Assembly (NCBI GenBank): GCA_964534555.1
Contig: CAZHRK010000003.1
Span: 1-64,000 of the forward strand
Direction of reading: 5' to 3'
Origin: an uncultured Pseudomonadota bacterium
Lineage (GTDB): Bacteria; Babelota; Babeliae; Babelales; RVW-14
Length of the DNA stretch: 64,000 bases
Within the stretch, counting starts at the first letter, position 1; the number at the start of each line of letters is the position of its first letter. Made by a program: the position numbers and the translations under genes. The notes under the pieces are model-generated. The model was not told where the DNA came from, ran no database searches, and saw only the letters and a program-made list of their open reading frames with translations. Positions 35,867-53,986 of this stretch are shown in pieces.

Positions 35867-38800
35867 CTATTTCTTTTTAGCGGCTTTCTTTGACGCTGCT
35901 TTTTTAGCCGCAGGCGCACCTTTTGTTGCTTTTTTAGGCGCTGTTTTTACTACTGTTTTTGCCGGTGCCTCTGCTTCTGATCTCTTTTCAGCTGCGCTAG
36001 CAGCTGGTGCTTTATCTTCAGCTGCTTCTTTTGCTGGGGCTGGTTTTTCATCGCTTTCATCAGGCACTGCCGCTTTAGGCGCAGCAACTTTCTTACCGCT
36101 GAGCAGCCTATTATTAAGCGTGATATTTCTGAATGTCACCGGTGTTTCCCAGCAGCTTAGTCCTATCCAGCTTATGCCTTCAATAGGATATGGGTCCGTC
36201 CATGTGAGCGTTGTGCCATTAGCAGCCTGAATCGTTATTGTTCCGCTGCGTAGTGTGATAGTGATTTTAGTTGGTTGGAATGCATTCAGCACACCACTTG
36301 CAAATGCTTTCTTTGTGACGGATTTAAATGCTTTGCCAAGGCTTTGTAGTCTCATCGCAAGACAGCTGTTATCAAATGCTCCGAAATGTAATTCATAAAG
36401 TTCTTTGCCTGAATTGCGCACCATGCTGCTATCATCAGCAAAACAAACCATAGCGTCTTTAAGTCCCTCGACTTCAAAGCTCAGTGAGAGTTCATTTGTT
36501 GTGTCGCTTGTTACTGGTAGCCAGATATACTCACCATAACATTTATCAATTCGTAGTGAGCTGCTTGTTCTTAAAATCTGGTGAGCCATTTTGTTTGCCC
36601 AAACATAAACAACCTCACGTTGGTCTGATCCTGCGGGAATAAGGAAGCTGTTATTAATCGCTGATAGTAGCAAGTTAAGCATGCTGTTGATAACGCGTGG
36701 GTTTGGTGTAGCTGAGTCATAAAGTGTTGGGTAGCTCGTGATCAAAAGCTCAATTATGTCATTTATTTTTTGAGCTACAAAATCAGAAACAACGTATGAG
36801 TGCGTTAGCAGGTAGATCACGTCTTGTGTCATAACGACAAGGCGCTCGAAGTTCTCTGGCGTAGTTGGTTGGAGTGAGCTTGTTGCTCTCAGTGTTGCCT
36901 CAGCTGTCTTACGATTATTTCTTGCATCCTCTGGCACCATCGCTTCTCCCAGTGGGATGCGTTCTGGTGCGTCGACAAACACATAGCTATCGTGGCTTTT
37001 GAATGCAAATTTTGCTTGTCCAGCGATAATGTTAGCATTAAATTTTGCTTGTGCGGCAGCGGTTTCTAATTCAAGCGCGCGCTGTTGTGCTGCAGCAGCA
37101 GATTCAGCGCCAGAGAGATCTCGTTGCGCGGCTGCGACATATGCTTGACTTGACATGCCTGCTGTAATAATAGCTGCAGTACCAGATGCGGCGGCAAATC
37201 CGGCACCCACACCGGCGATAATAATATTGTCACTCATTGCCAGCGCGCCACCAACCTTAGCACCCACCGTTGCGGTTGTATCTGCAATTTTAAGGAGCGA
37301 GTCTCCTTGAGCTCGACTCACATCACCTTGGGCGCGGGCGAGTTCTTTAAGTCTCTCACCATCAGCGCGCATGATGTCTGCTTTTTGTCGCTCAAGTTCT
37401 GCTGAAGCAGCAGCCTGCACGATCATCTGTTTGATTTTTATTTCTTGTGGGTTTTCAGGTGCTTTTGTCCAATCAAGCTTTGGCGCACCATCTGGCATAA
37501 CCGTGAGTGTAAAGTAATACAGTGCGCCTTGTTGCGGTGTTGCTCCGGCATAAAACGTGGTGTTGTTTACCATGTCGTCAAATTTTACAGACTCGTTTAC
37601 CTGAGAGACTCTGTATGAAAAAGGAAGGATGATGGTGATATCGCCTTCATAAATATTACTGTCGCTTGTAGCTGTTTTGCGTGCGTATTGGGTTGAGCGC
37701 TCGAGTATGAGCTGAACCGCATCAGCTATTTCAACTTCTTTAATAAGCGCATCAGGGGCATCGGTTGTAAATCCAACTTCTCTGATATCTGTAAGTGGGT
37801 TTACATCTTGGTAGACAAATGATGTATCGTTTCCGATATTGCCGTACCCAATAATAAAACGACCATTATTGTAGCTCACCCAAGGCGTAATCTCGCTGTC
37901 TTTTGACAGGTAAAGACCGTCTATTTCAACAACATCGCATGATCCGCGCTGGACGTACGCACCTTTAATGAATTTATAAATTACAATTTTCTTAAAATCA
38001 TCATCACCAAAGGTAATCTTGTAATGTGGTTTTGTAAGGTCTTGCCCTTGTGCCAAAATGAGGGAAGTTTTACCGCTTGCTTTTAGCGTAAAGCCAAGGG
38101 AGCCTTGATCGGCTATTCTGAGTGGTGTTTTGGTCCAAAGTGCCGCGCTTCCTCCAGCGGGAACAGTAAGTGTTTCAGTGCCTTCGTAATAAATACGATC
38201 CTGTGGTCTTGTGACGATTGGTCCATAAATTTGTATTTCTGCAAATTCAACAAGCGTTTTATTTGAGGCAAAGCCTATGCGGTTTACAAGTGGCATTGGA
38301 TCGTCTGTGCGATACGCCATAAAGACGTTCTCGCCCGGTAGCCCCATCCCGACAAGGATCAGTCCGTTGTCGTATGTCACCCAGTATGGTGTAAAGTTTC
38401 CAGGAGAAACAGCTGCTAGCGGGTTTTCTTTAACATCAATAACACACACGACATCGTCAACTGGTTCGTTGTTTTGTATTGTGCGCTGAATGATTGATGC
38501 TTGGGTGTTTTTAGCCCCACCAATAACAACTTTGTAGTCAAATGTATTATTCACCTCGTGGCCAAGGACAACCTGAATATCACCTTGATCATCAGCTTTT
38601 GCAACAAATCCAACGGTGCATCGATTATTAACTGGGAACGATTCATTAAGCCATGCTGCGCCTTTTCCAAGAAGCGGTTGCAGCTTAAGTGATGCTCCTT
38701 TTTCAAGCTTGATTGATGTTTGCGCTGATCCTGAAACTGTCGGTCTTTGGCGTACTGGAATTTCAAAATCAACAGAGTCTTGTGGTGGCACATTCCCGCC

Positions 38801-40822
38801 GTTTCCAAGGTCAATAATTTCAAACGCTACAGCAGAAAGATCCGATGGATCAAGAGCGCTGCCATCAGCATTTGTGGTAACTGCTATCGTAAGGTCACGC
38901 ATTTCTGTGCGCCCCGGAATAACTTTTTTAGTAATTCCCGCGCTGGTAGCAATTGTTGATAGCCATTGCTCTGATTTGTTCCAGCCTTTACCGTTCCAGG
39001 TGTAGAGCATTTGTTCTGCTGTATCGATCATATAAACCATCTCGTTGTTGCGAACCGAGATTTGTTTGATCTGTGGATTGCCTGCTGGAGCATCAACAAC
39101 AGCCCAGCTCTTAGCGTCGTAGTCATAGCGCCAGACACGGTTTTTATCATCAACTGCCCATACAGCGAGCTCTTCTGATGCAGACATAGTCACAATTTTT
39201 GCGCCTTGTGGCGATTGTGCTTTCCAGCTTTCACCGTTGTAGCTATAAATCGCGCCATCAACACCAAGGCCCCACATTTCACGGGGTGATATAATTGAAA
39301 TCTCTTTAAAACCAGGGCCTTTATCAAGCGGTGCCCAGCTATTATTTTGTCTCAAATAAGGCACGCCATCATTATCGAGCGTTACTGTTTGCCCCGCGCT
39401 GTTGACATCGACGTATTTAAATTTGAATGAAGATGGAATTTGCGTCCAGGTGCCGTTTTCAAATTTAAAGAGGCTTCCTTCCTGCGCTATTGCGTAAGCA
39501 ATTTCAGCCGATTGGAGCGCGAGTGATTGGAAGTAAATAAATGGCTCTTCATCAAGTACAGGATAGCTATTAAGCGTTGCAAGTGATCCTTCATCAGCGC
39601 CCGCACGAACGCTTAAAATACCGTTTTCGTTTAATAGTTTAAAAACCTGTTTAATGCTCATCTCATGACGAATTCTTATTTGTCCGTCGTCATCGGCAGT
39701 CCACCAGCCAAACTTGTTTGCTGTTCTGTCCCAATAATCACGACGTGCTGCGCCCCAGTTCCATGAGCTGTCTTGGCCATCATCTCTAAGGCTTTGAAGT
39801 GAAAAATCTGTGCAGTAGCGGAGCGGTTGGTTTGCAGGTGTTTTATTTATATCTTCATTATTCCATGTTGTTCTGAGCCATAGGCGCATTAATGTTCTGC
39901 CATCACCATTATTTGCAGGTTCTCTGTAACAAATAATATCCGCGTCGTTTTCACGAAATACAAAAAAGTTATTAAGGCCAGCATTTCTAAAATTAATATC
40001 ATGCCTGCTCAGCACTGCTTGTCCGTTTGTTTCGCTCTTGCCACCAAAAGTTACTGTATATTGAGCGTTTGGAGCGATATTACGAGCAATATCACCTTTA
40101 AGCGGTCTGTCATCACCATCATGGCGGTAGAATCGTTTTCTTCTTTGTGAGTAAATCGTTACTTTGTCACCGTATTTTACTTGCGGTTTATACACACCCC
40201 AAAGTGATGGTGAACGCAGAATTTGTTCGGTATCTTTTTCTACTTTAACCTCGACAGTCCCTTGATAAGGCATTAATACACCGCTCAAGCGATTTTTGAG
40301 ATGGCATTTGCCCAGATCTGAGCCAAGCAGTTCCCAGTGGGCGGCTTTGTCTTCATCATCGTCAAATGCTGTTGATGGGAAGCCTACAGGAGAGCGATTG
40401 CCTGGTGCGTACTGGCATGTAAGATCTTTTGTTATCGTGCTCTCAATCCCAATCCAATCTCTAAGTGGTGGTGATGAGAGCTTTCTTACGATGGTGAACT
40501 CTGTGGCTTTGTCGCTCGCATCGTTTGCATCAGCAACAAAGATCCATTTTTTATCGGCGTTTAACCTTGCTGCATAGTACTTTCCGCTTGCAATATGGCG
40601 TATGCGTACTGTTGTTCCATAAGGAAGGCTGTCATGTAATGTTTTTTCAAATGCGATTGATGCCGGATAAGGTGAGCCGTTTCTAATTCTATCAAGTACT
40701 GCATAACCAAATTTAGGCAGCTCAGCAAGAATGTCGGGAGTTTGAGTTGCGAATTTATTATTACTTTGCGGTATGAGCAAAAACGCTACACACCACAATA
40801 GCTTGAAGATATAATTTTTCAT
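35867..40822 (-). CDS. giant (~1650 aa) secreted protein with tectonin/tachylectin-type beta-propeller repeats, a duplicated ~130-aa domain and a histone-H1-like Lys/Ala/Pro tail
   Basis: Start MKNYIFKLLWCVAFLLIPQS (signal). W-x-G...VWGVN-like repeats (WAPLDKGPGFKEISII..MWGLGVDGAIYSY, WKAQSPQGAKIVTMSA..VWAVDDKNRVWRY, WAVVDAPAGNPQIKQISV..VYMIDTAEQMLYTW). Internal repeat ...FTPYWVTYDNGLILVGMG.. / ..ITPWVSYNNGRFIIGYG... C-terminal AAPKAAVPDESDEKPAPAKEAAEDKAPAASAAEKRSEAEAPAKTVVKTAPKKATKGAPAAKKAASKKAAKKK. Confidence 0.7.
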   Translation of the reverse strand: MKNYIFKLLWCVAFLLIPQSNNKFATQTPDILAELPKFGYAVLDRIRNGSPYPASIAFEKTLHDSLPYGTTVRIRHIASGKYYAARLNADKKWIFVADANDASDKATEFTIVRKLSSPPLRDWIGIESTITKDLTCQYAPGNRSPVGFPSTAFDDDEDKAAHWELLGSDLGKCHLKNRLSGVLMPYQGTVEVKVEKDTEQILRSPSLWGVYKPQVKYGDKVTIYSQRRKRFYRHDGDDRPLKGDIARNIAPNAQYTVTFGGKSETNGQAVLSRHDINFRNAGLNNFFVFRENDADIICYREPANNGDGRTLMRLWLRTTWNNEDINKTPANQPLRYCTDFSLQSLRDDGQDSSWNWGAARRDYWDRTANKFGWWTADDDGQIRIRHEMSIKQVFKLLNENGILSVRAGADEGSLATLNSYPVLDEEPFIYFQSLALQSAEIAYAIAQEGSLFKFENGTWTQIPSSFKFKYVDVNSAGQTVTLDNDGVPYLRQNNSWAPLDKGPGFKEISIISPREMWGLGVDGAIYSYNGESWKAQSPQGAKIVTMSASEELAVWAVDDKNRVWRYDYDAKSWAVVDAPAGNPQIKQISVRNNEMVYMIDTAEQMLYTWNGKGWNKSEQWLSTIATSAGITKKVIPGRTEMRDLTIAVTTNADGSALDPSDLSAVAFEIIDLGNGGNVPPQDSVDFEIPVRQRPTVSGSAQTSIKLEKGASLKLQPLLGKGAAWLNESFPVNNRCTVGFVAKADDQGDIQVVLGHEVNNTFDYKVVIGGAKNTQASIIQRTIQNNEPVDDVVCVIDVKENPLAAVSPGNFTPYWVTYDNGLILVGMGLPGENVFMAYRTDDPMPLVNRIGFASNKTLVEFAEIQIYGPIVTRPQDRIYYEGTETLTVPAGGSAALWTKTPLRIADQGSLGFTLKASGKTSLILAQGQDLTKPHYKITFGDDDFKKIVIYKFIKGAYVQRGSCDVVEIDGLYLSKDSEITPWVSYNNGRFIIGYGNIGNDTSFVYQDVNPLTDIREVGFTTDAPDALIKEVEIADAVQLILERSTQYARKTATSDSNIYEGDITIILPFSYRVSQVNESVKFDDMVNNTTFYAGATPQQGALYYFTLTVMPDGAPKLDWTKAPENPQEIKIKQMIVQAAASAELERQKADIMRADGERLKELARAQGDVSRAQGDSLLKIADTTATVGAKVGGALAMSDNIIIAGVGAGFAAASGTAAIITAGMSSQAYVAAAQRDLSGAESAAAAQQRALELETAAAQAKFNANIIAGQAKFAFKSHDSYVFVDAPERIPLGEAMVPEDARNNRKTAEATLRATSSLQPTTPENFERLVVMTQDVIYLLTHSYVVSDFVAQKINDIIELLITSYPTLYDSATPNPRVINSMLNLLLSAINNSFLIPAGSDQREVVYVWANKMAHQILRTSSSLRIDKCYGEYIWLPVTSDTTNELSLSFEVEGLKDAMVCFADDSSMVRNSGKELYELHFGAFDNSCLAMRLQSLGKAFKSVTKKAFASGVLNAFQPTKITITLRSGTITIQAANGTTLTWTDPYPIEGISWIGLSCWETPVTFRNITLNNRLLSGKKVAAPKAAVPDESDEKPAPAKEAAEDKAPAASAAEKRSEAEAPAKTVVKTAPKKATKGAPAAKKAASKKAAKKK

Positions 40823-40947
40823 AAGAAAGCCTTTATGGATCAGGAGCTTTGATTGATTAATTTGTCTCAATGTAAGAACCTGCTGCACTGTAAATCAAGA
40901 ATATGGTATGCTCATGGCCTAAAGTTTAGTAGGGCCTCTTAGGTAAG

Positions 40948-42000
40948 GTGCAGGCAGATATGGAGCTTTTATCACCAGTTGAGCTTTTGAGTCTTCAAGA
41001 GATGCAGGAAGACAAACAAATTACGTTTGAGCCAATGTCTTTTGATGAATATCTTGGGCAGCGAATCATTAAAGAAAAGCTTAAGCTCTACACTCAAGCT
41101 GCAAAAATGCGTCAAGAGCCAATGGACCATTTGTTGTTTTTTGGTCCGCCAGGGCTAGGCAAAACAACACTTGCTCGTGTAATGGCAAAAGAGCTTGGTG
41201 TTGGTATTAAGGTAACAAGTGCACCTATTCTTGAGCGCACCGGTGATTTAGTCGCAATTTTATCTGGGGTTGGTCCATCTGAGATTTTGTTTATCGATGA
41301 AATCCATCGTCTCCCAAAAAACGTTGAAGAAATTTTATACAGCGCAATGGAAAACTTTTGCGTCGATGTCATTATTGGTCAGGGGGCTGGCGCTAAATCG
41401 ATCAGATTGCCGCTTAATCGTTTTACTCTAATCGGTGCGACAACAAAGACATCTCTTGTTTCTGCTCCGTTGCAAACGCGATTTGGTATTGTTGAACGGC
41501 TTGATTTTTATGAGCCTGAAGAGCTGCGTGATATCGTGCTTCAGAATGCTCAGTTTCTTGGGCTTGCAATGTTGCCAGAAGCAGCCTTAGCCGTAGGTAG
41601 TCGTGCACGAGGAACACCTCGAATTGTAAAAAGAATTTTGCGTCGAGTTCGTGATTTTGCTCAGGTTAATAACCATTCGCTTGTTGATATGGATGTTGTA
41701 AATCAAGCCTTAGGCTTTTTGGGCATCGATGAAGATGGTCTTAATAAACTAGACCGTGAGCTTTTGAGCTTTATTTTGCGTGAGTTTGATGGCGGCCCTG
41801 CGGGTGTTGAAACGCTAGCAGCATTAACGGGTGAGGACAGAGAGACGCTTGAAGATGTTGTTGAGCCTTATTTGCTCCGCATGGGATTATTACAGAAATC
41901 ACCTCGTGGTCGCATGATCCCGCCTAAGAAAATTCCTTTGCTCAAGAAGAAGTTATTGGGAATTCAGGTTGAAAATGCGCAGAGTTTGCTTTTTGACTGA
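40948..42000 (+). CDS. ruvB: Holliday junction branch migration ATPase RuvB
   Basis: EYLGQ, Walker A FFGPPGLGKTTLA, Walker B ILFIDEIHRL, sensor and winged-helix regions; upstream start ambiguity. Confidence 0.85.
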   Translation: MQADMELLSPVELLSLQEMQEDKQITFEPMSFDEYLGQRIIKEKLKLYTQAAKMRQEPMDHLLFFGPPGLGKTTLARVMAKELGVGIKVTSAPILERTGDLVAILSGVGPSEILFIDEIHRLPKNVEEILYSAMENFCVDVIIGQGAGAKSIRLPLNRFTLIGATTKTSLVSAPLQTRFGIVERLDFYEPEELRDIVLQNAQFLGLAMLPEAALAVGSRARGTPRIVKRILRRVRDFAQVNNHSLVDMDVVNQALGFLGIDEDGLNKLDRELLSFILREFDGGPAGVETLAALTGEDRETLEDVVEPYLLRMGLLQKSPRGRMIPPKKIPLLKKKLLGIQVENAQSLLFD

Positions 42001-42299
42001 TGCTTTGCCATACTAAACGAAGTTTTATTATCACAATAACGCGCAAGGAGTACCCATGAACTCATTCAAAAATCATGGCCCTTGCTTGAAGCTCAATCCA
42101 AGCAACGGTCAGTCAGTACTAATAAACATTTCTAAGCGTGCAGTCTCTATGATTGTATCTCTTGTGAGTGTGGTGTCTGCTCATGCGTATTGCCGTTGTA
42201 TTAGTCATCATACGCAGGCCTGGCGGCTTATAGCTTCATAACCTCGCGTCTTCCTTCTGTTTTATATTTTGCTAACCCCTAAAAATTAAGGGGAATCTC

Positions 42300-43439
42300 A
42301 TGACTATTCGACTCGTTATGTCGACGGGCTTTGCCTTGTTTGCAATGCTTTTTGGTGCTGGAAATATTATTTTCCCACTCGTTCTTGGCGCTCATTCAGG
42401 AGATAAAGTTCTGTATGCGCTTGCTGGTTTTGCTATATCTGGACTTTGTATTCCGCTTATTGGTGTGATCGCTGCTCTTATGTATCAAGGCGATTATGAA
42501 AAACTTCTTAGCCATCTCGGTCGAGTGCCGAGCTCCGCGCTTATTGCGCTCTGCATGATGTTGATTGGACCTTTTGGGTGCATACCTCGTTGTATGTCCA
42601 TAGCTCACAGTGCTGTAAGCTGGCACATTCCTTCCCTACCGCTCCTTTTATTTAGTGCACTTGCTGCCGGCGTTGTGTATGTTTGCGCTGCCCAGCGCGG
42701 CGCGCTTGTAAATGTTTTGGGGAGTGTTTTGGGCCCTATAAAACTTACACTCTTGCTTGGGCTTGTTGTTATTGGTGGTGTGAATGCTGGTAAGATGCCC
42801 GCAGTTGATCTTGCAAAAAGCACGCTTTTTCTGCAGGGGCTATTTGATGGTTATGGCACCATGGATCTGCTCGGAGCGCTTTTCTTTGCAGGGATCTTAG
42901 CACGAGGCCTGAAAGGTAAATACCAACAAATATCACGACGCGACTTTATGCTTATGACTGTGGTGATAGGGGTTATCGGTATTGTGCTTTTGGGTATTGT
43001 CTATGGCGGCTTCTTTTTTGTTTCTGCAGCTTATGCGGGGCAACTTGTTCACCTTGAGCGAGGGCAGCTGTTGTCTGGCCTTGCCACGCTTGTCCTTGGG
43101 CAGTATGGTGGAATGGTGGCAAATATAACCATTAGCCTTAGCTGCTTAACAACAGCAATAGCGCTGACATCAGTTTTTTCTGACTATATTCGCGGGTTAA
43201 GCGGCAACAGACTTTCGTATAAAACCTGTGTTGCAGGGACTGTGTTGATTGCAACATGTATGACAACGCTGGGCTTTCAAAAAATTATGGAGCTCATTTA
43301 TCCTTTGATTGGCATGTGTTATCCAATCCTGCTTATTGTTGCGTGTGCTGGGCTTTTACATAAAGTTATTGGTGTAGTTGTTCCCCGCCACTCAATGTAT
43401 GCAGCATTTATGCTTTTAATGCTTATGAAATTGTTTTAA
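42300..43439 (+). CDS. brnQ: branched-chain amino acid transport system II carrier (LIVCS family)
   Basis: N-terminal GFALFAMLFGAGNIIFPLVLG hallmark, 12 TM. Confidence 0.8.
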   Translation: MTIRLVMSTGFALFAMLFGAGNIIFPLVLGAHSGDKVLYALAGFAISGLCIPLIGVIAALMYQGDYEKLLSHLGRVPSSALIALCMMLIGPFGCIPRCMSIAHSAVSWHIPSLPLLLFSALAAGVVYVCAAQRGALVNVLGSVLGPIKLTLLLGLVVIGGVNAGKMPAVDLAKSTLFLQGLFDGYGTMDLLGALFFAGILARGLKGKYQQISRRDFMLMTVVIGVIGIVLLGIVYGGFFFVSAAYAGQLVHLERGQLLSGLATLVLGQYGGMVANITISLSCLTTAIALTSVFSDYIRGLSGNRLSYKTCVAGTVLIATCMTTLGFQKIMELIYPLIGMCYPILLIVACAGLLHKVIGVVVPRHSMYAAFMLLMLMKLF

Positions 43440-43446
43440 TCAAAAA

Positions 43447-43476
43447 ATACCCCCAAGCAAATCAGCTTGGGGGTAT
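43447..43476. terminator. bidirectional terminator (12-bp stem)
   Basis: atacccccaagc-aaatca-gcttgggggtattttt between brnQ stop 43439 and minus-strand RING gene stop 43479. Confidence 0.55.
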
Positions 43477-43478
43477 TT

Positions 43479-43871
43479 TTATGCTATAAAGTTTTCTACG
43501 ACGGCGTAGGCAAGTGCTAAAATTATCAGTGCGGCCTCTTTCTTAAATGGTGGCCTTTTTTCTTTATAAAGCCGCCTGCGCTCAATCGTTTCTGTATACT
43601 GCCTGCACAAAGGACATTCATTCTTTCCTGATGCAGTAATCCATGCAGATAGGCATTCAGGGTGAATTATGTGGTGGCATTCGGTCATGTTTTCATCTAT
43701 CTCTTCAGCTGGTTCTAGACAAACGCAGCATCTATTTTCGTTTTCAAGGGATTGTTGACTAGCAGGGTGAATTGGCTGTGTTGTAAAGTTGACTGTAAAA
43801 AGTGATAGTGCAAAAAGAATTATAAGCATTTCGCTTTCGAAGGGGTATAAACTGACCGATATGATAAACAA
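43479..43871 (-). CDS. membrane-anchored/secreted RING-H2 zinc-finger protein (eukaryotic E3-ligase-like)
   Basis: CCVCLEPAEEIDENMTECHHIIHPECLSAWITASGKNECPLCRQ = C-x2-C-x14-C-x1-H-x2-H-x2-C-x14-C-x2-C. N-terminal hydrophobic segment; start may be TTG at 43871 or ATG at 43829. Confidence 0.7.
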   Translation of the reverse strand: MFIISVSLYPFESEMLIILFALSLFTVNFTTQPIHPASQQSLENENRCCVCLEPAEEIDENMTECHHIIHPECLSAWITASGKNECPLCRQYTETIERRRLYKEKRPPFKKEAALIILALAYAVVENFIA

Positions 43872-43970
43872 GGGCCGTAATTATATCAGTCTGATTGATC
43901 TCTTGCAATCATAAAGTAGCCCTGAATCAATATTTAGGACTACTTTATGACTATTGTCGACAGTTTAAAT

Positions 43971-45425
43971 TTAATTGATTTGTGATAATGCGAGTGTTAA
44001 AGCTTTTGCTATAGCATCTGTATTATGTGTGACAGCGTTTTCGATTGATTTATACAAGTCAAAAAACTCTTTGCCGGTATAGCTAAATTTACTTGTTGGG
44101 AAATCAAGCTTGTTCGGGACGTGGATAATAATTGGGGTCTGCTTATCTGTCGGGTCTGCCCAGATAGAGAGAGGTTTTTCAGCAAGCTGAGCATAGTCGA
44201 TTTTCGGGAATTTATAGCCGTGTGCTCGTGCCCAATTTTCAACTTCACGCATGTCAGTACCGAGTGCTGAATTTGCATCAGTCCCCGCGTCACAAACAAA
44301 ATAAATCTTTACGCCGCGTCTGAGCAGGGGAGGGAATGGAATATTTGTTGCCATACCAGCATCAACAAACGTTAGTTTTCCTGCTTTTCCTAGTGGGGCC
44401 TGCAGTCCATGAACAAAATTAGGTATTTCAGGCGCGCTTATCCGTGCATTATTTCCCCAAAACCAATTAAACCAGCTTGATGAAATATCGATGTTGTGGG
44501 AGACCTGGAGTCCTTCTTTTATAAACTGCAGTGCGTCTATGACGCTTCCTGCGTATGCAGAGCCAAATATTCCCATCATAAATGCAAGGTTTTCCCCGGG
44601 TGAGGTATCTTGTGTGATTCCATTTTTAAATGTTTTGCCGAAAAGTTGTGGTTGAATCCAGCCTTTAAAATAGGTGCTCCCGATCTCAAATGGTGAGTAT
44701 TCAACCCATTGGTAATCTGGATTTGTTTGACCAATAATTGAGGTGAAAAGTGGTACAGGGTAGTCGCCAGATAGCGTATGGGGTGCTAGGTCCTCAAGAT
44801 TGAGATCAAGCCCATGATTAGTTGGGCTTGATAGGAAAACATTACCTATCAGGTTGCCCCATAAATCATTCAGCCCAATTGATTTGCCCTGCCATGCTTT
44901 GCTCGCTATTTTTCTTGAGATCGCTTTTTCATCAATATTTTTTAAGCTAAAAGCTTCGTAAAGTTTGCTTTGTAAGCGTGAAGTAAGTGCAATTGGAGAA
45001 ACTTTATGTGTGTACCATGATGCGGTTGTCCAGGTTGATCCTGATAGGCTTGCAATATATGTCACAGCATCAAGGAGTCCAATCCGCTCAAGGCCTCTTA
45101 AGAGCCCGAGTGTTGCAATTGCAGCGCGAAACCCCCCACCACTTGCAGCTACAGCGATCATAGGGATATTTTGACCAAGCGGATACGATTGCCCTAAAAG
45201 TTTTTGTAGCGCGCTTCTATTGCGGCTAAGTCTGTTTCGTAGGGCTGCAAGTTCATTTATTGAAGGAGCATCCCCCTGACGAACTTGGCCAATAATAGGA
45301 CCAGTAGTTGCTTGTTGAGAAATTCCCTTTTTTTGATAATGAATAACTTTGCTGAGGGTGTGGCTGTACGCTTGGCTTGTGCTTAAAACTATAGCCATGA
45401 GCATGATCATGCATGTTGATAGCAT
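43971..45425 (-). CDS. secreted cytosolic-PLA2-type (PLA2_B) lipase, second paralog
   Basis: Signal peptide; IAVAASGGGFRAAIATLGLLRGLERIGLLDAVTYIASLSGSTW matches cPLA2 GGGFRAM...LSGSTW catalytic block. Confidence 0.7.
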   Translation of the reverse strand: MLSTCMIMLMAIVLSTSQAYSHTLSKVIHYQKKGISQQATTGPIIGQVRQGDAPSINELAALRNRLSRNRSALQKLLGQSYPLGQNIPMIAVAASGGGFRAAIATLGLLRGLERIGLLDAVTYIASLSGSTWTTASWYTHKVSPIALTSRLQSKLYEAFSLKNIDEKAISRKIASKAWQGKSIGLNDLWGNLIGNVFLSSPTNHGLDLNLEDLAPHTLSGDYPVPLFTSIIGQTNPDYQWVEYSPFEIGSTYFKGWIQPQLFGKTFKNGITQDTSPGENLAFMMGIFGSAYAGSVIDALQFIKEGLQVSHNIDISSSWFNWFWGNNARISAPEIPNFVHGLQAPLGKAGKLTFVDAGMATNIPFPPLLRRGVKIYFVCDAGTDANSALGTDMREVENWARAHGYKFPKIDYAQLAEKPLSIWADPTDKQTPIIIHVPNKLDFPTSKFSYTGKEFFDLYKSIENAVTHNTDAIAKALTLALSQIN

Positions 45426-45612
45426 AGACTCTCCTTAGACTGTGTTTATGACACGATGAATCAAGGCATTTGTAGCCTTTTTTTATCAAAATCAACAGCC
45501 TAATACAGCACAATCCAAGCGCTAATTGCAAGAGAGGTTGCGCTTTTTTAGGTTAGGTCTATACTACCACCCCCCAAATCACTAGGTTTATTCTCATAAG
45601 GAGCGATTATTA

Positions 45613-46386
45613 GTGTATCGACTGACTGTTAGTTTTATCTTTTTAGTGTCGTTTTTTCTCCCCAATATTTTATCTCGGTCTATTACAGGTTATGAGCATC
45701 CTCTGGGCACAACGCTCAACCGTGTAGAAGAAGTTCCTGAGCATGAGGTTGTCGTTGGTCAAATGATTGATGATCTTGATGGTGACGCTGCAGATGATAT
45801 GGGTGAGAACGAATCGCTGCAAGAAGATCACCAAGAAGCTCCAGTAGATGAAATATGTCTTTTTTGTGTTAATGAAATTACAGCTCTTAATAAACTCCTT
45901 GATGAGTTTTGTATTCTGTCATGTGGGCACAGTGTCCATAAAGATTGTTTGCTCGCATTTTTTCAAGAGCATACAGATACGATTGAAGAGGGTGATGATG
46001 CATTTGAATTTGTTTGCAATGCACATGAGGGACATTCTGAAGACGTTGTGTTTGACCTGCAAGACGCTTTAGATGCTGATCTGCCTGTGATTTTATTTGG
46101 GCTTCTGCAAAATCAAAATCCAGATCTTACACCAACATCGCTTGTTGATTTGGGTGCAGACTTTTTTGAAGGCATGCCATTTTGGTTGCTTTTTATTAGC
46201 AGAATTCTTCCTAAATCAGTTGGTTATTTATATGCCAATAATATTCCATTTTTGCACCACACGTTTGATAATAAAAACCCAATTGAGTGGGCGCATGAAT
46301 TAGGCTTTGAGGGTATTGCCCAAAGGTTTTCTGTGCTGAGAGATCAAGGTCGTTGTATTCCGATACCACTTCCAGATCAGAATTAA
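45613..46386 (+). CDS. secreted RING-variant zinc-finger protein with C-terminal ankyrin-like repeat, paralog A
   Basis: GTG start with AAGGAG RBS; signal peptide; CLFCVNEITALNKLLDEFCILSCGHSVHKDC...FEFVCNAHEGH (C-x2-C-x16-C-x1-H-x2-H-x2-C...C-x2-H); C-terminal NNIPFLHHTFDNKNPIEWAHELGFEGIAQRF. Confidence 0.5.
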   Translation: MYRLTVSFIFLVSFFLPNILSRSITGYEHPLGTTLNRVEEVPEHEVVVGQMIDDLDGDAADDMGENESLQEDHQEAPVDEICLFCVNEITALNKLLDEFCILSCGHSVHKDCLLAFFQEHTDTIEEGDDAFEFVCNAHEGHSEDVVFDLQDALDADLPVILFGLLQNQNPDLTPTSLVDLGADFFEGMPFWLLFISRILPKSVGYLYANNIPFLHHTFDNKNPIEWAHELGFEGIAQRFSVLRDQGRCIPIPLPDQN

Positions 46387-46416
46387 TAGGTTTGAAGATT
46401 ATTTACGGGGTGCACT

Positions 46417-47232
46417 ATGAAGGTGTTACATTTTATAGTATTGCTTAGTGTTACTATCTTGCATGGCTTTGATCTTCAAGCGCGTGTTAGGTTGCCTTGG
46501 CCCTTGGTTCCAGGGGCAAGCGTTGCGCTGCCAAGTCATGGCGCGCCGATTGAAGGCCCGCTTGTTGATGTTCTTCTAAATCCTTTCCCATTACCAGATG
46601 AGGATGAAGCACCGGTTTCTCGATGCATGTTTTGCACAGAGTCTTTTCTTGAAGGACAGGTAAAGGTAGTTTTTGAGTGCGGTGATAGTGGACATAAAAA
46701 TTGTTTGGTTAATTTCTTCCTTGAGCATGTTCATGAGGCATCTCAGTTTTTAGCCACGTTCAACTTTGCTTGCCATCATCATGAAGAGCCACATGATTTA
46801 TTTATTGATCTTGGGACTGCTTTAGCAATTGACTCACCCGAAATATTCTTTGTTCTCCTTGCATCGTCTGAAGACGGAATGGCAATGTCAGAGCTTTTGA
46901 ATCTGAATTTCCCAGGTGATCCAAAACCGTACTGGCTTAAGATTATAGAGTCTGAGGCGCGTGCTATTTTGTCATATATTACCAGCAATAATATACCGTT
47001 TCTTCATTATGTTTATGAGGGGAAAACTCCTGTAGAATGGGCAGAAGACCTAGATCTTGAGGATTATTATCTTGCTCTTTATAACCTGCAAGCAGCGGGT
47101 CGCTGTCTTCCTGCGCCGTCATCATCATTAGGGCTTCTGGTAGGTGGCTATAGTGGTCTTTATGGCGCTATTTCGCCAGTTTCAAGCGATGATGATTCGC
47201 TTTCGATCCATTCGCTTGATACAAATATTTAG
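46417..47232 (+). CDS. secreted RING-variant zinc-finger protein, paralog B (tandem duplicate)
   Basis: Signal peptide; CMFCTESFLEGQVKVVFECGDSGHKNC...FACHHHEEPH; C-terminal NNIPFLHYVYEGKTPVEWAEDLDLEDYY aligns with paralog A. Confidence 0.5.
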   Translation: MKVLHFIVLLSVTILHGFDLQARVRLPWPLVPGASVALPSHGAPIEGPLVDVLLNPFPLPDEDEAPVSRCMFCTESFLEGQVKVVFECGDSGHKNCLVNFFLEHVHEASQFLATFNFACHHHEEPHDLFIDLGTALAIDSPEIFFVLLASSEDGMAMSELLNLNFPGDPKPYWLKIIESEARAILSYITSNNIPFLHYVYEGKTPVEWAEDLDLEDYYLALYNLQAAGRCLPAPSSSLGLLVGGYSGLYGAISPVSSDDDSLSIHSLDTNI

Positions 47233-47373: not shown

Positions 47374-48096
47374 ATGTCCGGTCATTCCAAGTGGGCTACG
47401 ATTAAACATAAAAAAGCCAAAGAAGATTCTAAGCGCGGTAAGATTTTTACGAAGATTGTTCGTGAAATCACCGTAGCTGCACGTGAGGGTGGGGGTGATC
47501 CTGCTGGAAATCCTAAGCTCAGGCTTATTTTGGAAAAGGCAAAAGAGTGCAATATGCCAGCTGATAACGTTAGCCGTGCTATTAAAAAAGGTACGGGTGA
47601 GCTTGGTGGTGGCGCTATGTACGAGCCTTTTACTTACGAAGGGTATGGGCCTGCAGGTATCGCCGTTATGGTTGAGACGTTGAGTGATAATAAAAATAGA
47701 ACTGTCTCTGAGTTGCGCCATCAATTTACAAAAGCTGGTGGGAATCTAGGAGAAAACGGCTCTGTAGCCTGGATGTTCGAGCATAAAGGCGTAATCCGAG
47801 GCGTGACGTCAGCATCAGAAGATACTCTTCTTGAAGCATTAATGGATGCCGATATTGATGATCTTAAAGTTGTTGATGATAACGTTGTGATTATTGTTAA
47901 ACCGACATCGCTTGATGCTGCAAAGCGTCTTGCCGCTACTGTCGGTGTTAAAATTGAACAAGCTCAGCTTGAGTGGGTTGCTAAAAATCCGATCTCTGTG
48001 CCTGCGGGTGAGCAGGAAGACGTCGTCTTCAAATTTCTTGAAGCACTTGATGATCTTGATGATGTACAAAACGTTTATGCAAATATTGGCGATTAA
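47374..48096 (+). CDS. yebC: YebC/PmpR family DNA-binding transcriptional regulator
   Basis: MSGHSKWATIKHKKAKEDSKRGKIFTKIVREITVAAREGGGDPAGNPKLRL.. textbook YebC N-terminus. Confidence 0.85.
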   Translation: MSGHSKWATIKHKKAKEDSKRGKIFTKIVREITVAAREGGGDPAGNPKLRLILEKAKECNMPADNVSRAIKKGTGELGGGAMYEPFTYEGYGPAGIAVMVETLSDNKNRTVSELRHQFTKAGGNLGENGSVAWMFEHKGVIRGVTSASEDTLLEALMDADIDDLKVVDDNVVIIVKPTSLDAAKRLAATVGVKIEQAQLEWVAKNPISVPAGEQEDVVFKFLEALDDLDDVQNVYANIGD

Positions 48097-50180: not shown

Positions 50181-50263
50181 AGTTACTCATTGTGTTGCTT
50201 TATTTTAGTTCTTCGCTACGTTACCTACATGCAAAATAAATGTCTTATAAAAAAGGAGTAATA

Positions 50264-50926
50264 ATGATGACATTTCGACGCATTTCACTACACATGGTGG
50301 CAGTGTTTGGATTAGTTTTAACAGCTGGCATTCTTAATGCTGCAACATCACCAAAACCAGAGGCTGAAGCTGATGCCGCTGCGGCTGTTGGTGGTGGTAA
50401 TGATTCAGCTGATCGCGCTGCTTCACCTGTTAGAGCTCGTAGCGGTACTTTGCATAATGATGCCCCGGCTACTGGAGCGGCAGATGCAGATCAGGTTGTT
50501 GCACCAACTGCTCCTACTGACGCTAGCCATGAAGAAACTCAAACGCCTCCTCCGTCACCTGAAGCAACAGCGCTTGCTGCAAACAGACAAACTAGCAGAA
50601 TTTGGGCTGGTTTGACTAATGGTGGTAGAGCTGCTTGGGCTCAAGCAGTCGCTGGAACTGATTGGGTTAAACAGCACCCTGGTACATTTGCAGTGTATGC
50701 AACAACTGTGCTTGCTGCGGCATGTGCTGTTGTTGCAACCCAAACTCCTGAGTGTGCGGCTGCGCTTTCACTTGCAGACCTGCAAGTTTGCCTTGAGCAC
50801 CTTCCTGCATCAGCGTGGGCTCTTGGAGCATCTGCAGTTGTAGGTGTAACAGGCCTTGCAACAGCTGGCTACGATAGATTAGTAGCAGCTGGAACTTGGG
50901 CTGCACAAGGTCTAAGACTTGCTTAA
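50264..50926 (+). CDS. hypothetical secreted Ala-rich protein
   Basis: Start MMTFRRISLHMVAVFGLVLTAGILNA (RBS aaaggag); Ala/Pro/Thr-rich. Confidence 0.45.
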   Translation: MMTFRRISLHMVAVFGLVLTAGILNAATSPKPEAEADAAAAVGGGNDSADRAASPVRARSGTLHNDAPATGAADADQVVAPTAPTDASHEETQTPPPSPEATALAANRQTSRIWAGLTNGGRAAWAQAVAGTDWVKQHPGTFAVYATTVLAAACAVVATQTPECAAALSLADLQVCLEHLPASAWALGASAVVGVTGLATAGYDRLVAAGTWAAQGLRLA

Positions 50927-50966: not shown

Positions 50967-51587
50967 ATGAAAATGTTATTTGCACTAGTATTACTTGCTG
51001 TGAGCGCAAATCTTGCAGCTTCTAACGAAAATGCTGATGGCCCAATTGCAAGCCGTACAAGAAGACGCTCAAAAGCTGCTTCAGCGCCTAGCGCGCCTCA
51101 AAAACCAGCTCGTTCACATCAAGCTCTTACGCCTACCAGCGCTGTAGATTTAACTGCAGCTATGGACGCTGCTGTTGCCTCATCAGCTTCTGATGTTGAA
51201 ACCGCAGAAAAAGCAGCGGCAGCGCTGGATAGACTTGCTGAGCGTAAACCAGATTCAAGAGTAGCTGCTGTTTGGGCTGCGTGCAAAACAAGATCAGCAA
51301 AAGCTCTTAATCTTGTGCCATCTCGTACAGCTCTGTGGACAGCTCTTTGGGGATGCTGCCGTAGAACAAAAAATGTAGTTTTAAGCAAAGAAGCTGTCAG
51401 CGCGCTAGCGGTAGCATCATTCGTTACATTTGCTGCTGCATGTCCTGAGCTTCAGTCATTTGTTGGAGCGCACCTTCCAGAAACTGTAGCATTACAGGCT
51501 GTAAATGCTCTTACAACCCTTGCTGTGCCTGCTACATACGTTCTTTCAATTGTTAAATCAATACCAGCATCTTTTGTAGCTGCGTAA
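50967..51587 (+). CDS. hypothetical secreted Ala-rich protein
   Basis: Signal peptide MKMLFALVLLAVSANLAAS; Ala-rich; RBS aaggaga. Confidence 0.45.
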   Translation: MKMLFALVLLAVSANLAASNENADGPIASRTRRRSKAASAPSAPQKPARSHQALTPTSAVDLTAAMDAAVASSASDVETAEKAAAALDRLAERKPDSRVAAVWAACKTRSAKALNLVPSRTALWTALWGCCRRTKNVVLSKEAVSALAVASFVTFAAACPELQSFVGAHLPETVALQAVNALTTLAVPATYVLSIVKSIPASFVAA

Positions 51588-51785: not shown

Positions 51786-52793
51786 ATGAAACGCTTGTTT
51801 ATGATGGCGCTGGTGATTTTGTTTGGTGCTATGAGCAACCTTACGCACGCTGCAGTTGCTGTTCCAGCACCGCTTGCACCTCATGATAATCGCCCTGCGT
51901 ATACCGCTTGTAAAGATGAGTTGTATAGAGTTTTTGCGCGAGACGCTGTTTTAGTCGGTCAGGCCGAAAACATTGTTGCTGCTCGTAATGAGGCATATAC
52001 GGCTATGCAGAGCGCTTTAGAAAATATTCTTTCAGTTGAAGATGTATCGTACCGCCTTGTTGGTAACTCGCCGCAACATGGACCCTCGTTTGCACGCCTT
52101 CCTCAAGAAATGAAAAGCCTATGGGAAGAAGTGCGTTCATTCTGGTGTCATGCAATTTTGCGCTTTGATGCTCTTTCAAATACTGATTCTGTGGAAGATA
52201 CATTTGTTCATACAGGATTAAGTCAGCATGCGTTAGCAAATGAAAATTTTCAGCTCACCTCAGTTTATAATCCTGCATCTCATTCTATGATTATGCATGG
52301 TACCTTTGGTGATGCGTATTATAGTGTTTATAAATCTTTTATTAACCTTGCACTTGCACGTGGCTGGTTTAATGTTGGAGTGAATTTTTTACTTGCACTT
52401 ACTACCGCGACTGAAGGCGATTATAAAGATTTACTCAAGCAAGATTTGCTTGATTCAGCAAATGCATTTAACAATAATCTTTTCACACTTATTGTGAGAA
52501 ATGAAAGAACACGAAGAGCCTTTGTTGAGGTTTATCGTGACACTGATTTTTTTGATCGAAAATATGCACGTGAGCGCGCGTCATTATTACCGTGCTTTAG
52601 GCCTGTACGCGGTCTAGATTATTTTAATCATTCTGTGGTGCCAACCTTTGGAGCGCCTAGACCAGGCAGATTTGAAGGTTCTTTGAGTATGCTTAAAGAA
52701 GCTTTTTTGTATGCTGCGCCTATGCTTGCAGCAGCAGGTGTTACAGCCCTAGCTTCATATATATATAAGTATAATATCGCAATTCATGATTAA
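51786..52793 (+). CDS. hypothetical secreted protein with C-terminal hydrophobic anchor
   Basis: Signal peptide MKRLFMMALVILFGAMSNLTHA; C-terminal AAPMLAAAGVTALASYIY. Confidence 0.5.
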   Translation: MKRLFMMALVILFGAMSNLTHAAVAVPAPLAPHDNRPAYTACKDELYRVFARDAVLVGQAENIVAARNEAYTAMQSALENILSVEDVSYRLVGNSPQHGPSFARLPQEMKSLWEEVRSFWCHAILRFDALSNTDSVEDTFVHTGLSQHALANENFQLTSVYNPASHSMIMHGTFGDAYYSVYKSFINLALARGWFNVGVNFLLALTTATEGDYKDLLKQDLLDSANAFNNNLFTLIVRNERTRRAFVEVYRDTDFFDRKYARERASLLPCFRPVRGLDYFNHSVVPTFGAPRPGRFEGSLSMLKEAFLYAAPMLAAAGVTALASYIYKYNIAIHD

Positions 52794-52960: not shown

Positions 52961-53986
52961 ATGAAGATCTATAAGTCACTTGCGAATTTTATTACTATCT
53001 TAAGGCTGTGTGCAGCGCCTTTTGTTGCTTACAGCATCGTAACTATCTCTACGCCGGCAGATGCCCTGCTATCACTCGTATTTTTCTTTTTAGTCGCCCT
53101 TACGGATTATCTTGATGGCTTGTGCGCTCGATTTTTTGGAGCGTCAGCATTTGGTGCGTTTGCAGACCCTATAGCAGATAAAGCATTGATTCTATGTAGC
53201 ATGGGAGCTCTTTGGGGGCACGCTATTGTGCCGCTGGGCGCGCTCCTTATTGTCGCAGGGCGTGATCTTTGGATTACCTATATTCGCAGTGCTGCGTCAC
53301 TTCAAAAAATTCCTTTTACAACCTCTCGTATTGCAAAATACAAGACATTTGCCCAATGTATAGGCGTTTGTGTCTCATTGCTTGCGATTTATGGGGCGGT
53401 CCCGCTCTGGTTTAATGATATATTTTGGCTGGTTGTTGTGCTGCTAACGCTATGGTCTGGACTCAGCTACAGTATCACTTTTTTTAAGCATGTTGGGTTG
53501 CCTGAATGGTTTAAGTTGTTTGATATTAATACACTTATTGCTTCAGGGATTTTAAGCGGCTTTATTCCTCGTGCCCCCGGAACTTTTGGGACATTAGTTG
53601 GATGGTTTATCGTTGCTTACTTGCAGCAAGCGTACTCATTAGAGCTATTACGAGTAGCGCTTGTGCTTGTTTTTAGTATTGGTCTTCTTGCTTCGTACAA
53701 ATGCACGTTGTCAGCGCGTGATACTGATCCATCCTGGATTGTTATTGATGAGATTGTTGGCTTTTGGTTTGTATTGGTGTTTTTGCCGGTTCAGACGCTT
53801 GAGTGGCAATGTGCCGCATTTGTATTATTCAGATTTTTTGACATCTCAAAAGTAGGTTTGATTGGAACTGTAGATCGTCGTTTCAAGAATGCATTAGGCC
53901 TTATGCTTGATGATATGATTGCGGGGGGATATACAATTACCGTTCTCTGGATTATTAACCACATGCGTCTGTTGTGTGGGTTTTGA
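52961..53986 (+). CDS. pgsA-pgpA: bifunctional fusion: CDP-diacylglycerol--glycerol-3-phosphate 3-phosphatidyltransferase (PgsA) + phosphatidylglycerophosphatase A (PgpA)
   Basis: N-half carries the CDP-alcohol phosphatidyltransferase motif DYLDGLCARFFGASAFGAFADPIADK. C-half carries PgpA motifs PGTFGTLVG, IDEIVGFW, FRFFDISKVG and LDDMIAGGYT. Confidence 0.7.
   Translation: MKIYKSLANFITILRLCAAPFVAYSIVTISTPADALLSLVFFFLVALTDYLDGLCARFFGASAFGAFADPIADKALILCSMGALWGHAIVPLGALLIVAGRDLWITYIRSAASLQKIPFTTSRIAKYKTFAQCIGVCVSLLAIYGAVPLWFNDIFWLVVVLLTLWSGLSYSITFFKHVGLPEWFKLFDINTLIASGILSGFIPRAPGTFGTLVGWFIVAYLQQAYSLELLRVALVLVFSIGLLASYKCTLSARDTDPSWIVIDEIVGFWFVLVFLPVQTLEWQCAAFVLFRFFDISKVGLIGTVDRRFKNALGLMLDDMIAGGYTITVLWIINHMRLLCGF

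Follow-up and report, generated by a model that had tools for sequence, protein, structure and literature searches.

Genes for a cPLA2-family lipase and RING-type proteins at a permissive ruvB–yebC junction in a Dependentiae genome

Four consecutive genes of eukaryote-like appearance lie next to yebC in contig CAZHRK010000003.1 (assembly GCA_964534555.1), of which we analysed 64,000 nt, here called the window. They raise the question whether the cluster is a compact island that was acquired and acts as one host-manipulation unit, as a preliminary description had proposed, or whether it came together in another way. The four open reading frames (ORFs) of that description all exist (43479-43871 and 43971-45425 on the minus strand, 45613-46386 and 46417-47232 on the plus strand) and encode a small RING-H2 protein (gene 1), a lipase of the cytosolic phospholipase A2 (cPLA2) family (gene 2) and two tandem paralogs, par3 and par4 (genes 3 and 4). 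Comparison with related genomes shows that the region is an accessory-gene hotspot, a permissive junction that was filled stepwise, and not an island acquired as a unit, because the distribution of its genes among relatives is nested and the hallmarks of mobility and of foreign composition are absent. The layout is as follows.

40948..42000, plus strand: ruvB, with RuvB_N, AAA_lid_4 and RuvB_C domains; the true conserved left flank of the variable spot
42300..43439, plus strand: brnQ-type branched-chain amino-acid carrier (Branch_AA_trans, 212 bits); accessory cargo
43443..43480: bidirectional intrinsic terminator between the convergent brnQ and RING-H2 genes
43479..43829 (longest ORF to 43871), minus strand: RING-H2 gene (gene 1; zf-RING_2, 35.2 bits)
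43880..43908, minus strand: promoter-like site upstream of the RING-H2 ATG
43909..43950: 19-bp hairpin just 3' of the lipase stop codon
43971..45425, minus strand: cPLA2-family lipase (gene 2), 484 aa (PLA2_B, 88.2 bits)
45426..45612: divergent intergenic region between lipase and par3, 187 bp by its coordinates
45613..46386, plus strand: par3 (gene 3), 257 aa, with a sub-threshold zf-RING_2 match
46417..47232, plus strand: par4 (gene 4), 271 aa, tandem paralog of par3
47374..48096, plus strand: yebC (YebC/PmpR equivalog model, 311 bits); conserved right flank

The host lineage is Dependentiae (TM6/Babeliales). The best YebC relatives (54-75% identity) come from uncultured metagenome-assembled genomes (MAGs), many of whose records are generically or differently labelled; nearly all relatives with a phylum-level name are called TM6, Dependentiae or Babeliales, Vermiphilus among them. 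Members of the Dependentiae live as obligate intracellular parasites in protists (PMC4776705, PMC6561590, PMC4378268), which makes a host-directed role for the genes of the locus reasonable.

History of the ruvB–yebC junction

We compared the locus with 80 Dependentiae loci (L-numbers). In most of them ruvB, yebC and yicC are directly adjacent, and the yebC-yicC adjacency is found in nearly all; the ancestral order is ruvB–yebC–yicC. The direct adjacency of ruvB and yebC in most loci identifies these two genes as the conserved flanks. The part of a conserved core flank had earlier been given to brnQ, which occurs at the locus only in L081 and L082 and nearby in L014. The content of the gap between ruvB and yebC varies among relatives as follows.

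L081, sister strain, YebC 99% identity: brnQ, RING-H2, lipase, par3, par4
L082, YebC 85% identity: brnQ and lipase only
L001, L083/84, L003, L085, L004, L007, YebC 67-75% identity: one or two lipase genes
L002, YebC 70% identity: nothing
L025, YebC 63% identity: three lipase paralogs

The gap is usually empty in genomes more distant than the lipase-bearing relatives. Without any RING gene, the lipase is present at the junction in at least nine related loci (L001, L003, L004, L007, L025, L082-L085). The sole other carrier of the complete four-gene set is the near-identical sister strain L081, and apart from this strain and the window the combination was found in none of the genomes compared. 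The four genes are thus not present or absent as one block: the relatives form a series from lipase only through brnQ and lipase to all genes, on which grounds we rejected a single-block genomic island. Rather, the lipase is a long resident of the junction, vertically inherited across a subclade; brnQ joined later, and only the lineage that led to the window and its sister strain gained RING-H2, par3 and par4.

None of the usual traces of mobile DNA was found in the region. There is no tRNA target (the nearest tRNAs are ~8 kb away), a Pfam scan gave no integrase, transposase or other mobility domains, and repeats are only short and at chance level. Composition shows no break either, with a GC content of 0.39-0.45 and a GC content at third codon positions (GC3) of 0.28-0.39 against a window GC of 0.42, and the synonymous divergence (dS) and GC3 of the locus genes resemble those of neighbouring genes. 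The genes of the locus have no introns, and two independent assemblies carry the same arrangement.

Across the phylum, the ruvB|yebC junction is a cargo site. In other Dependentiae genomes the gap holds seven PLA2_B ORFs, six SSF transporters, three members of Peptidase_A4 (a family known mostly from fungi) and one RING ORF, and further trypsin/PDZ proteases, PP2C, MIP (aquaporin), DUF2807 and ankyrin proteins (L019, L020, L024, L036, L052, L060, L066, L075 and others). In some genomes the lipase gene itself occurs at the junction as a tandem array, of two copies in L003 and in L085 and of three in L025, which indicates a lineage-specific family expansion.

A cPLA2-family lipase with a signal-like N-terminus

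Gene 2 matches PLA2_B (PF01735) with 88.2 bits against a Pfam cutoff of 23, whereas the Patatin model stays below its cutoff. Sequence matches in the PDB include cPLA2-alpha (1CJY, E 3.7e-34) and cPLA2-delta (5IZ5, E 1e-27). The motifs GGGFR, SLSGS and VDAG align to those of Arg200, Ser228 and Asp549 in cPLA2-alpha, and the alignment to 1CJY gives the following catalytic residues.

45126-45128, minus strand: Arg100, the oxyanion/phosphate-binding residue
45042-45044, minus strand: Ser128
44361-44363, minus strand: Asp355

Among 75 bacterial-type homologues Arg100, Ser128 and Asp355 are kept in 72, 75 and 74, respectively, and in the eukaryotic sequences in 17 of 17. The AlphaFold model, built from an alignment of 82 sequences, reached a predicted local distance difference test score (pLDDT) of 91.5, and in a Foldseek search with this model the ten best PDB matches were all cPLA2-alpha or -delta (template modelling score, TM, 0.68-0.75; best E 5.5e-29). 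The patatin-like proteins PlpD, VipD, CapV/CapE and ExoU ranked after the cPLA2s with TM <=0.39.

In catalytic domain and fold, the protein thus resembles group IV cPLA2 (1CJY, 5IZ5) and the fungal and other eukaryotic PLA2_B lysophospholipases, and with cPLA2-alpha it shares the GGGxR, GxSGS-like and DxG motifs. It differs in several respects. Pfam detects no C2 domain and the alignment begins at cPLA2 residue 160; residues 1-21 are signal-like, where cPLA2 has a cytosolic N-terminus; the cap insert comprises ~47 residues, compared with ~134 in cPLA2-alpha; and Ser stands in place of the first Gly in the nucleophile elbow (SLSGS). A signal-like N-terminus was found in 57 of the 75 bacterial-type homologues and a C2 domain in none of the 75. 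The description as a signal-peptide lipase of the cPLA2 family, which had been made from the DNA letters and their translations, holds in that PLA2_B scores above its cutoff, the cPLA2 fold is modelled and the N-terminus is hydrophobic. A cPLA2 in the strict sense, i.e., a Ca2+-regulated cytosolic enzyme, was considered and rejected, as the C2 domain is missing, the cap is shortened and a signal-like N-terminus is present instead.

The bacterial-type PLA2_B clade to which gene 2 belongs is large and deep and consists mostly of unnamed metagenomic proteins; wherever a name or genomic context was available, it pointed to Dependentiae. In a rough tree made by neighbour joining, which included ten eukaryotic sequences, a single split separated all of these from the bacterial-type sequences, and the copies at the junction formed one subclade, which fits an old family inherited vertically at the site. 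A scan of viral contigs gave no relatives of the lipase. Of bacterial proteins, the members of this clade are the most closely related to the eukaryotic group IV enzymes, more so than patatin-like ExoU and VipD. The searchable literature held no link of PF01735, a cPLA2-type lipase or a phospholipase with Dependentiae or Babelota, and none for a cPLA2-type enzyme in other bacteria, and a clade of secreted, C2-less cPLA2 relatives in Dependentiae appears to be undescribed.

With the patatin-like effectors ExoU, VipD and PlpD the lipase has in common a Ser/Asp dyad, the superfold and a presumed action as phospholipase on host membranes. The resemblance is a functional one; in structure the two match only distantly (TM 0.3-0.4, E 8e-6 to ~1e-2). 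Effectors of this type use type III, type IV or type V secretion systems together with host cofactors, neither of which is evident for the lipase.

A small RING-H2 protein with the determinants of E2 contact

Gene 1 passes three Pfam RING models, zf-RING_2 (PF13639; 35.2 bits, cutoff 27.3), zf-ANAPC11 (32.5, cutoff 25) and zf-C3HC4 (24.6, cutoff 21), and its orthologue in L081 is annotated likewise. The eight ligands follow the C3H2C3 scheme (C48-x2-C51-x13-C65-x-H67-x2-H70-x2-C73-x12-C86-x2-C89), are all kept in L081 and are encoded at 43605-43730. Start of translation is most likely the ATG at 43829, giving 116 aa, and not the TTG at 43871; the public gene call, P0102, also has 116 aa. The N-terminal hydrophobic segment noticed earlier (residues 11-31) is present, and a second one (residues 111-130) lies at the C-terminus, giving the order signal-like hydrophobic segment, RING-H2, basic stretch and C-terminal hydrophobic anchor. 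The latter could serve as a tail anchor in a host membrane or keep the protein in the membrane of the bacterium.

For gene 1, the best relatives among solved structures are RNF13 (E 4e-6), ARK2C/RNF165, Arkadia, EL5, an RMR protein and RNF24. As criteria for contact with a ubiquitin-conjugating enzyme (E2), we used a hydrophobic residue before Cys2, an aromatic one in the central helix, Pro after Cys7 and an Arg or Lys linchpin after Cys8, a set which we take to be that of established RING–E2 structures. This set is consistent with PMC12591485. Gene 1 has V50, W77, P87 and linchpin R90 at these positions, and from its sequence the protein should be a competent ubiquitin ligase (E3). It shares with the RNF13/RMR PA-TM-RING proteins, ATL/EL5, RNF24 and Arkadia/RNF165 the C3H2C3 ligands, the pattern H-x2-C-[il]-x2-W...C-P-x-C-R, the E2-contact residues and a membrane anchor. 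In contrast to these eukaryotic RING-H2 E3s it has only 116 aa, lacks a PA or GLD domain and is bacterially encoded, and the order is reversed, with signal, RING and C-terminal anchor in place of a transmembrane segment followed by the RING. A word-indexed homologue search returned only gene 1 itself, and no close eukaryotic donor was detectable.

Two further RING proteins were seen in related loci. In L037 (Dependentiae MAG contig JAJCZE010000009.1, 8083-8595, minus strand) a 170-aa protein encoded immediately upstream of ruvB begins with a signal or transmembrane segment, followed by a RING-H2 and, at the C-terminus, by a transmembrane segment. This layout matches that of gene 1, which suggests that the design recurs in Dependentiae. 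L016 (5673-6455) codes for another RING protein, in which the RING is C-terminal.

Two paralogs with a RING-like cysteine/histidine cluster

The tandem paralogy of genes 3 and 4 was borne out, with 35% identity between par3 and par4 (E 2e-31). Both consist of a signal-like N-terminus, an acidic disordered linker, a RING-H2-like Cys/His cluster and a novel helical C-terminal domain. The clusters are located as follows.

45856-46026, plus strand: RING-like cluster of par3, C82..H138 (C82, C85, C104, H106, H109, C112, C135, H138)
46624-46782, plus strand: RING-like cluster of par4, C70..H122 (C70, C73, C88, D90, H93, C96, C119, H122)

The common columns read C-x2-C...C-x-[H/D]-x2-H-x2-C...C-x2-H, with seven of the eight positions invariant; deviations from RING-H2 are the His as last ligand in both proteins and the Asp as ligand 4 in par4. 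This pattern did not arise in any of 200,000 composition-preserving shuffles of either paralog, and among 5,552 ORFs in 1.4 Mb of related DNA it was confined to RING-type candidates. An hhalign comparison of par3/par4 with a small RING-H2 profile gave 86% probability (P 4.9e-6), covering ligands 1-6 only. In a PDB profile search synoviolin, TRIM32, the KAT6A PHD finger and RNF24 came first, none of them significant (top RING only E 0.16). Hydrophobic residues, F84 and F116, occupy the two main E2-contact positions. The cluster claimed in the preliminary description is present in par3, and par4 deviates from it by the Asp at ligand 4; the Pfam RING scores of both are below the cutoff, and their assignment to the RINGs is tentative. 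The ankyrin-like C-terminal repeat of the same description was not recovered and was discarded as a candidate, since no Ank profile matched at E<=1 in the full proteins or at E<=10 in the isolated C-terminal halves.

A word search of 5.8 billion clusters with par3 returned only par3 itself, and an exhaustive HMMER search of 1.84 billion representatives with the par3/par4 profile only the two query proteins. Viral contigs also contained no relatives of the paralogs; as the same holds for the lipase, there is no sign of exchange with giant viruses. Between the two strains the RING-like region of par3 is 99% conserved, compared with 74% for the acidic linker. The paralogs are real genes; they are constrained and yet change fast, a frequent trait of host-interaction proteins. 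A RING-derived zinc module with an atypical or weak ligase or E2-binding role is somewhat more likely than an unrelated zinc module.

Evolutionary rates and transcription signals

We computed the ratio of nonsynonymous to synonymous divergence (dN/dS) against the sister strain L081. All four genes are under purifying selection, with values of 0.34 for par3, 0.25 for par4 and 0.23 for RING-H2, whereas ruvB, yebC, yicC, brnQ, the GT9 gene and the lipase fall between 0.002 and 0.04. The three RING-type genes thus evolve ~10x faster than their neighbours, and selection on the lipase (0.025) is as strong as on housekeeping genes.

The terminator between brnQ and RING-H2 (43443-43480) consists of a perfect 16-bp inverted repeat between an A-run and a T-run. 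Missed by the consensus scan, it was spotted by eye and confirmed by folding (-27.1 kcal/mol, z -6.4; 0/200 shuffles fold as well). The promoter-like site upstream of RING-H2, TTGCAA-17-TATAAT with a TG extension and 10/12 matches, was the best-scoring site of a scan in which the total counts of promoter and terminator sites in the region did not exceed chance and which gave no convincing promoter in the lipase/par3 intergenic region. The hairpin 3' of the lipase (inverted repeat I3, 89% complementary, 4-nt loop) possibly separates the transcription units of lipase and RING-H2. With hairpin, promoter-like site and terminator lying between or around them, the two genes appear to be separate transcription units, a further point on which the region departs from the compact unit first proposed.

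Proposed explanation and alternatives

Taken together, we consider it probable that this accessory hotspot was filled stepwise with a Sec-exported, host-directed lipase, the RING-H2 protein and the RING-like paralogs without their forming an obligate unit; the genes would be neighbours because the site tolerates insertions. The host-manipulation role suggested earlier is reasonable for a parasite of protists in which all four proteins have signal-like N-termini. All four would be exported by Sec and are most likely host-directed proteins using Sec and the type II secretion system (T2SS); no other secretion system has been reported in the phylum (PMC4378268, PMC4776705). Vesicles have also been proposed as export route, and signal peptides were found on 44% of the Chromulinavorax coding sequences (PMC6561590). 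The lipase may be a constitutively active, Ca2+- and C2-independent phospholipase A or lysophospholipase acting through Ser128 and Asp355, which would cleave host membrane phospholipids in vacuole remodelling or escape, in lipid scavenging, or in both. The RING-H2 protein, whose gene has its own promoter-like site and strong terminator, would be a membrane-anchored mimic of eukaryotic RING-H2 E3s that recruits host E2~ubiquitin to the membrane surface. The fast-evolving, lineage-specific par3 and par4 would combine a degenerate RING-H2-like zinc module with their novel C-terminal domain. Both the Pro and the linchpin Arg are missing from them, and they are more likely E2-binding proteins, weak or atypical ligases, or substrate adaptors than standard E3s.

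Several points weigh against this explanation. Export of the proteins, their arrival in the host cytosol, the E3 activity and the specificity of the lipase are all inferred, and the signal peptides of all four proteins were judged by hydropathy heuristics only. The RING-H2 protein could be held in the bacterial inner membrane with its RING facing a periplasm that has no ubiquitin system. In par3 and par4, the zf-RING_2 scores (18.5 bits, E 2.5e-3, and 14.8 bits, E 0.036) lie below the cutoff of 27.3, N/H replaces the Pro and an invariant Glu the linchpin Arg, and the AlphaFold model of par3, from a two-row alignment, was too poor for a fold search (pLDDT 40). Moreover, three RING-type genes lie within 4 kb, whereas related loci of about 1.3 Mb in total contained only two more RING ORFs, and because of this striking local concentration some functional linkage of the genes is possible. 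For a functional link between the RING genes and the lipase, nothing provides support.

The idea that the four genes are one horizontally acquired module, whose ubiquitin and lipid activities act as a unit, draws on their tight clustering, with the lipase flanked by three RING-type genes all within 3.8 kb, on the divergent arrangement of lipase and par3 across 187 bp and on the retention of all four genes in the sister strain. It is improbable, and synteny largely refutes it, given that the lipase sits at the junction without a RING gene in at least nine related loci, that L082 has brnQ and lipase only and that no further genome compared shows the combination, while searches of 5.8e9 clusters and 1.84e9 representatives gave no homologue of par3 or par4. 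Nor does the module agree with the lack of tRNA, integrase, flanking repeat and GC break, with a lipase evolving ~10x slower than the RING-type genes, or with the hairpin, promoter-like site and terminator that separate lipase and RING-H2. A possibility to be taken more seriously, if still the lesser one, is that par3 and par4 are not ubiquitin-ligase RINGs at all but carry a structural zinc module (treble-clef, PHD-like or an E2 decoy), their function residing in the C-terminal domain. The low Pfam scores, the replaced Pro and Arg, the mixture of RING and PHD fingers among non-significant PDB profile matches and the restriction of hhalign to the first six ligand positions are in its favour, and par3 also fits a PHD-like C4HC2H scheme via C100. 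This residue is missing from par4, however, the seven common ligand columns fit RING-H2 spacing, F84 and F116 are hydrophobic at the two main E2-contact positions, hhalign gave P 5e-6 against RING-H2, and atypical ligands do occur in a bacterial RING known to be active (PMC12591485).

For the lipase, a mainly nutritional or housekeeping function unrelated to the RING genes, such as scavenging of fatty acids and lysolipids or remodelling of the own envelope, is conceivable yet rather doubtful. Its housekeeping-level selection (dN/dS 0.025), the position kept across the subclade and the tandem expansions would be expected from such a function, and the Dependentiae, whose metabolic pathways are incomplete, import metabolites from their hosts (PMC6561590); but the family-wide signal-like N-terminus points to an extracytoplasmic substrate, and scavenging from host membranes would itself be host-directed, so that the two explanations overlap. 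We regard it as very improbable that the RINGs serve a system internal to the bacterium, such as conjugation of ubiquitin-like proteins (Ubl) or anti-phage defence, or that a eukaryotic contaminant or a chimeric assembly accounts for the region. Prokaryotic RING families do exist and gave weak matches (Prok-RING_4, E 0.21; Prok-RING_1, E 0.11), but gene 1 has a much higher score with zf-RING_2, a eukaryote-type model, no gene for an E1, E2, Ubl or JAB protein lies in the neighbourhood, and PADLOC returned only one noise match of 12.6 bits, hence nothing meaningful, on which a defence-system role was rejected. Against contamination or a chimera stand the arrangement shared by two independent assemblies, dS and GC3 like those of the neighbours, the lack of introns and the bacterial terminator. 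The statement that RING and cPLA2 domains are eukaryotic inventions is only partly fair, with prokaryotic RING families in Pfam and a deep bacterial-type clade in PLA2_B. At the other extreme, par3 and par4 might form a new fast-evolving class of RING-variant effectors, in which C3-[H/D]-H-C2-H is fused to a novel substrate-binding domain and which acts with RING-H2 and lipase on one host membrane; this is a long shot. There, local ubiquitin chains might recruit or activate the lipase, by analogy to the patatin-like toxin ExoU, which is activated by ubiquitin.

Comparison with other intracellular bacteria and significance

RING-type proteins are known from Simkania negevensis, an amoeba-associated obligate intracellular bacterium like the host of the window proteins. 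Its SneRING is an experimentally active E3 ligase with atypical ligands, and the ligands of its tandem RING-like pair, SNE_A08700/SNE_A08690, are degenerated (PMC12591485). The window proteins differ from these in belonging to another phylum and in their Sec-type signals, no sequence relationship was detected, and par3/par4 have His as last ligand and, in par4, Asp at ligand 4. Within the phylum, Babela massiliensis has a RING finger protein, an F-box protein and C19 deubiquitinases (PMC4378268). As presumed for the window, its strategy would be to hit host ubiquitin signalling with exported eukaryote-like proteins, and T2SS is its sole secretion system. The Babela proteins are annotated at genome level only, and no cPLA2-type lipase, RING cluster or paralog pair was reported there. 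Since RING proteins are known in both B. massiliensis and Simkania, the RING part of the locus extends a known kind.

The findings extend the theme of eukaryote-like proteins in amoeba-associated bacteria; they do not overturn current ideas or establish a new principle. Dependentiae are widespread and almost uncultured, and their effector biology is essentially unknown; in this poorly known phylum, the region yields candidate effectors and an uncharacterised lipase family. A clade of putatively secreted C2-less lipases of cPLA2 fold, with at least 75 bacterial-type cluster representatives, is useful for questions on the origin and the minimal requirements of this fold, and a RING-H2 protein of 116 aa with every E2-contact determinant is an easily testable candidate E3 ligase. 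Furthermore, the locus is a worked example of how host-interaction genes that evolve fast accumulate at a permissive junction in the reduced genome of a parasite.

Other features of the window

Directly upstream of ruvB, a 1673-aa ORF (35867-40888, minus strand) contains three Methyltransf_FA stretches (E 5e-29). Its orthologues carry Tectonin matches, and the position is kept in L081 (1649 aa) and L083/L084 (2037 aa); the ORF looks like a eukaryote-like lectin or beta-propeller protein of the surface or secreted type. Between ruvB and brnQ, a 61-aa ORF (42056-42241, plus strand) was also called in L081. Downstream of the GT9 glycosyltransferase gene follow three consecutive plus-strand ORFs without Pfam match (50240-50926, 50967-51587 and 51786-52793). 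Finally, a 341-aa fusion of PgsA (CDP-OH_P_transf) and PgpA is encoded at 52961-53986 (plus strand); the two are fused also in L081 and L082, whereas in L083/L084 they are separate adjacent genes of 180 and 149 aa.

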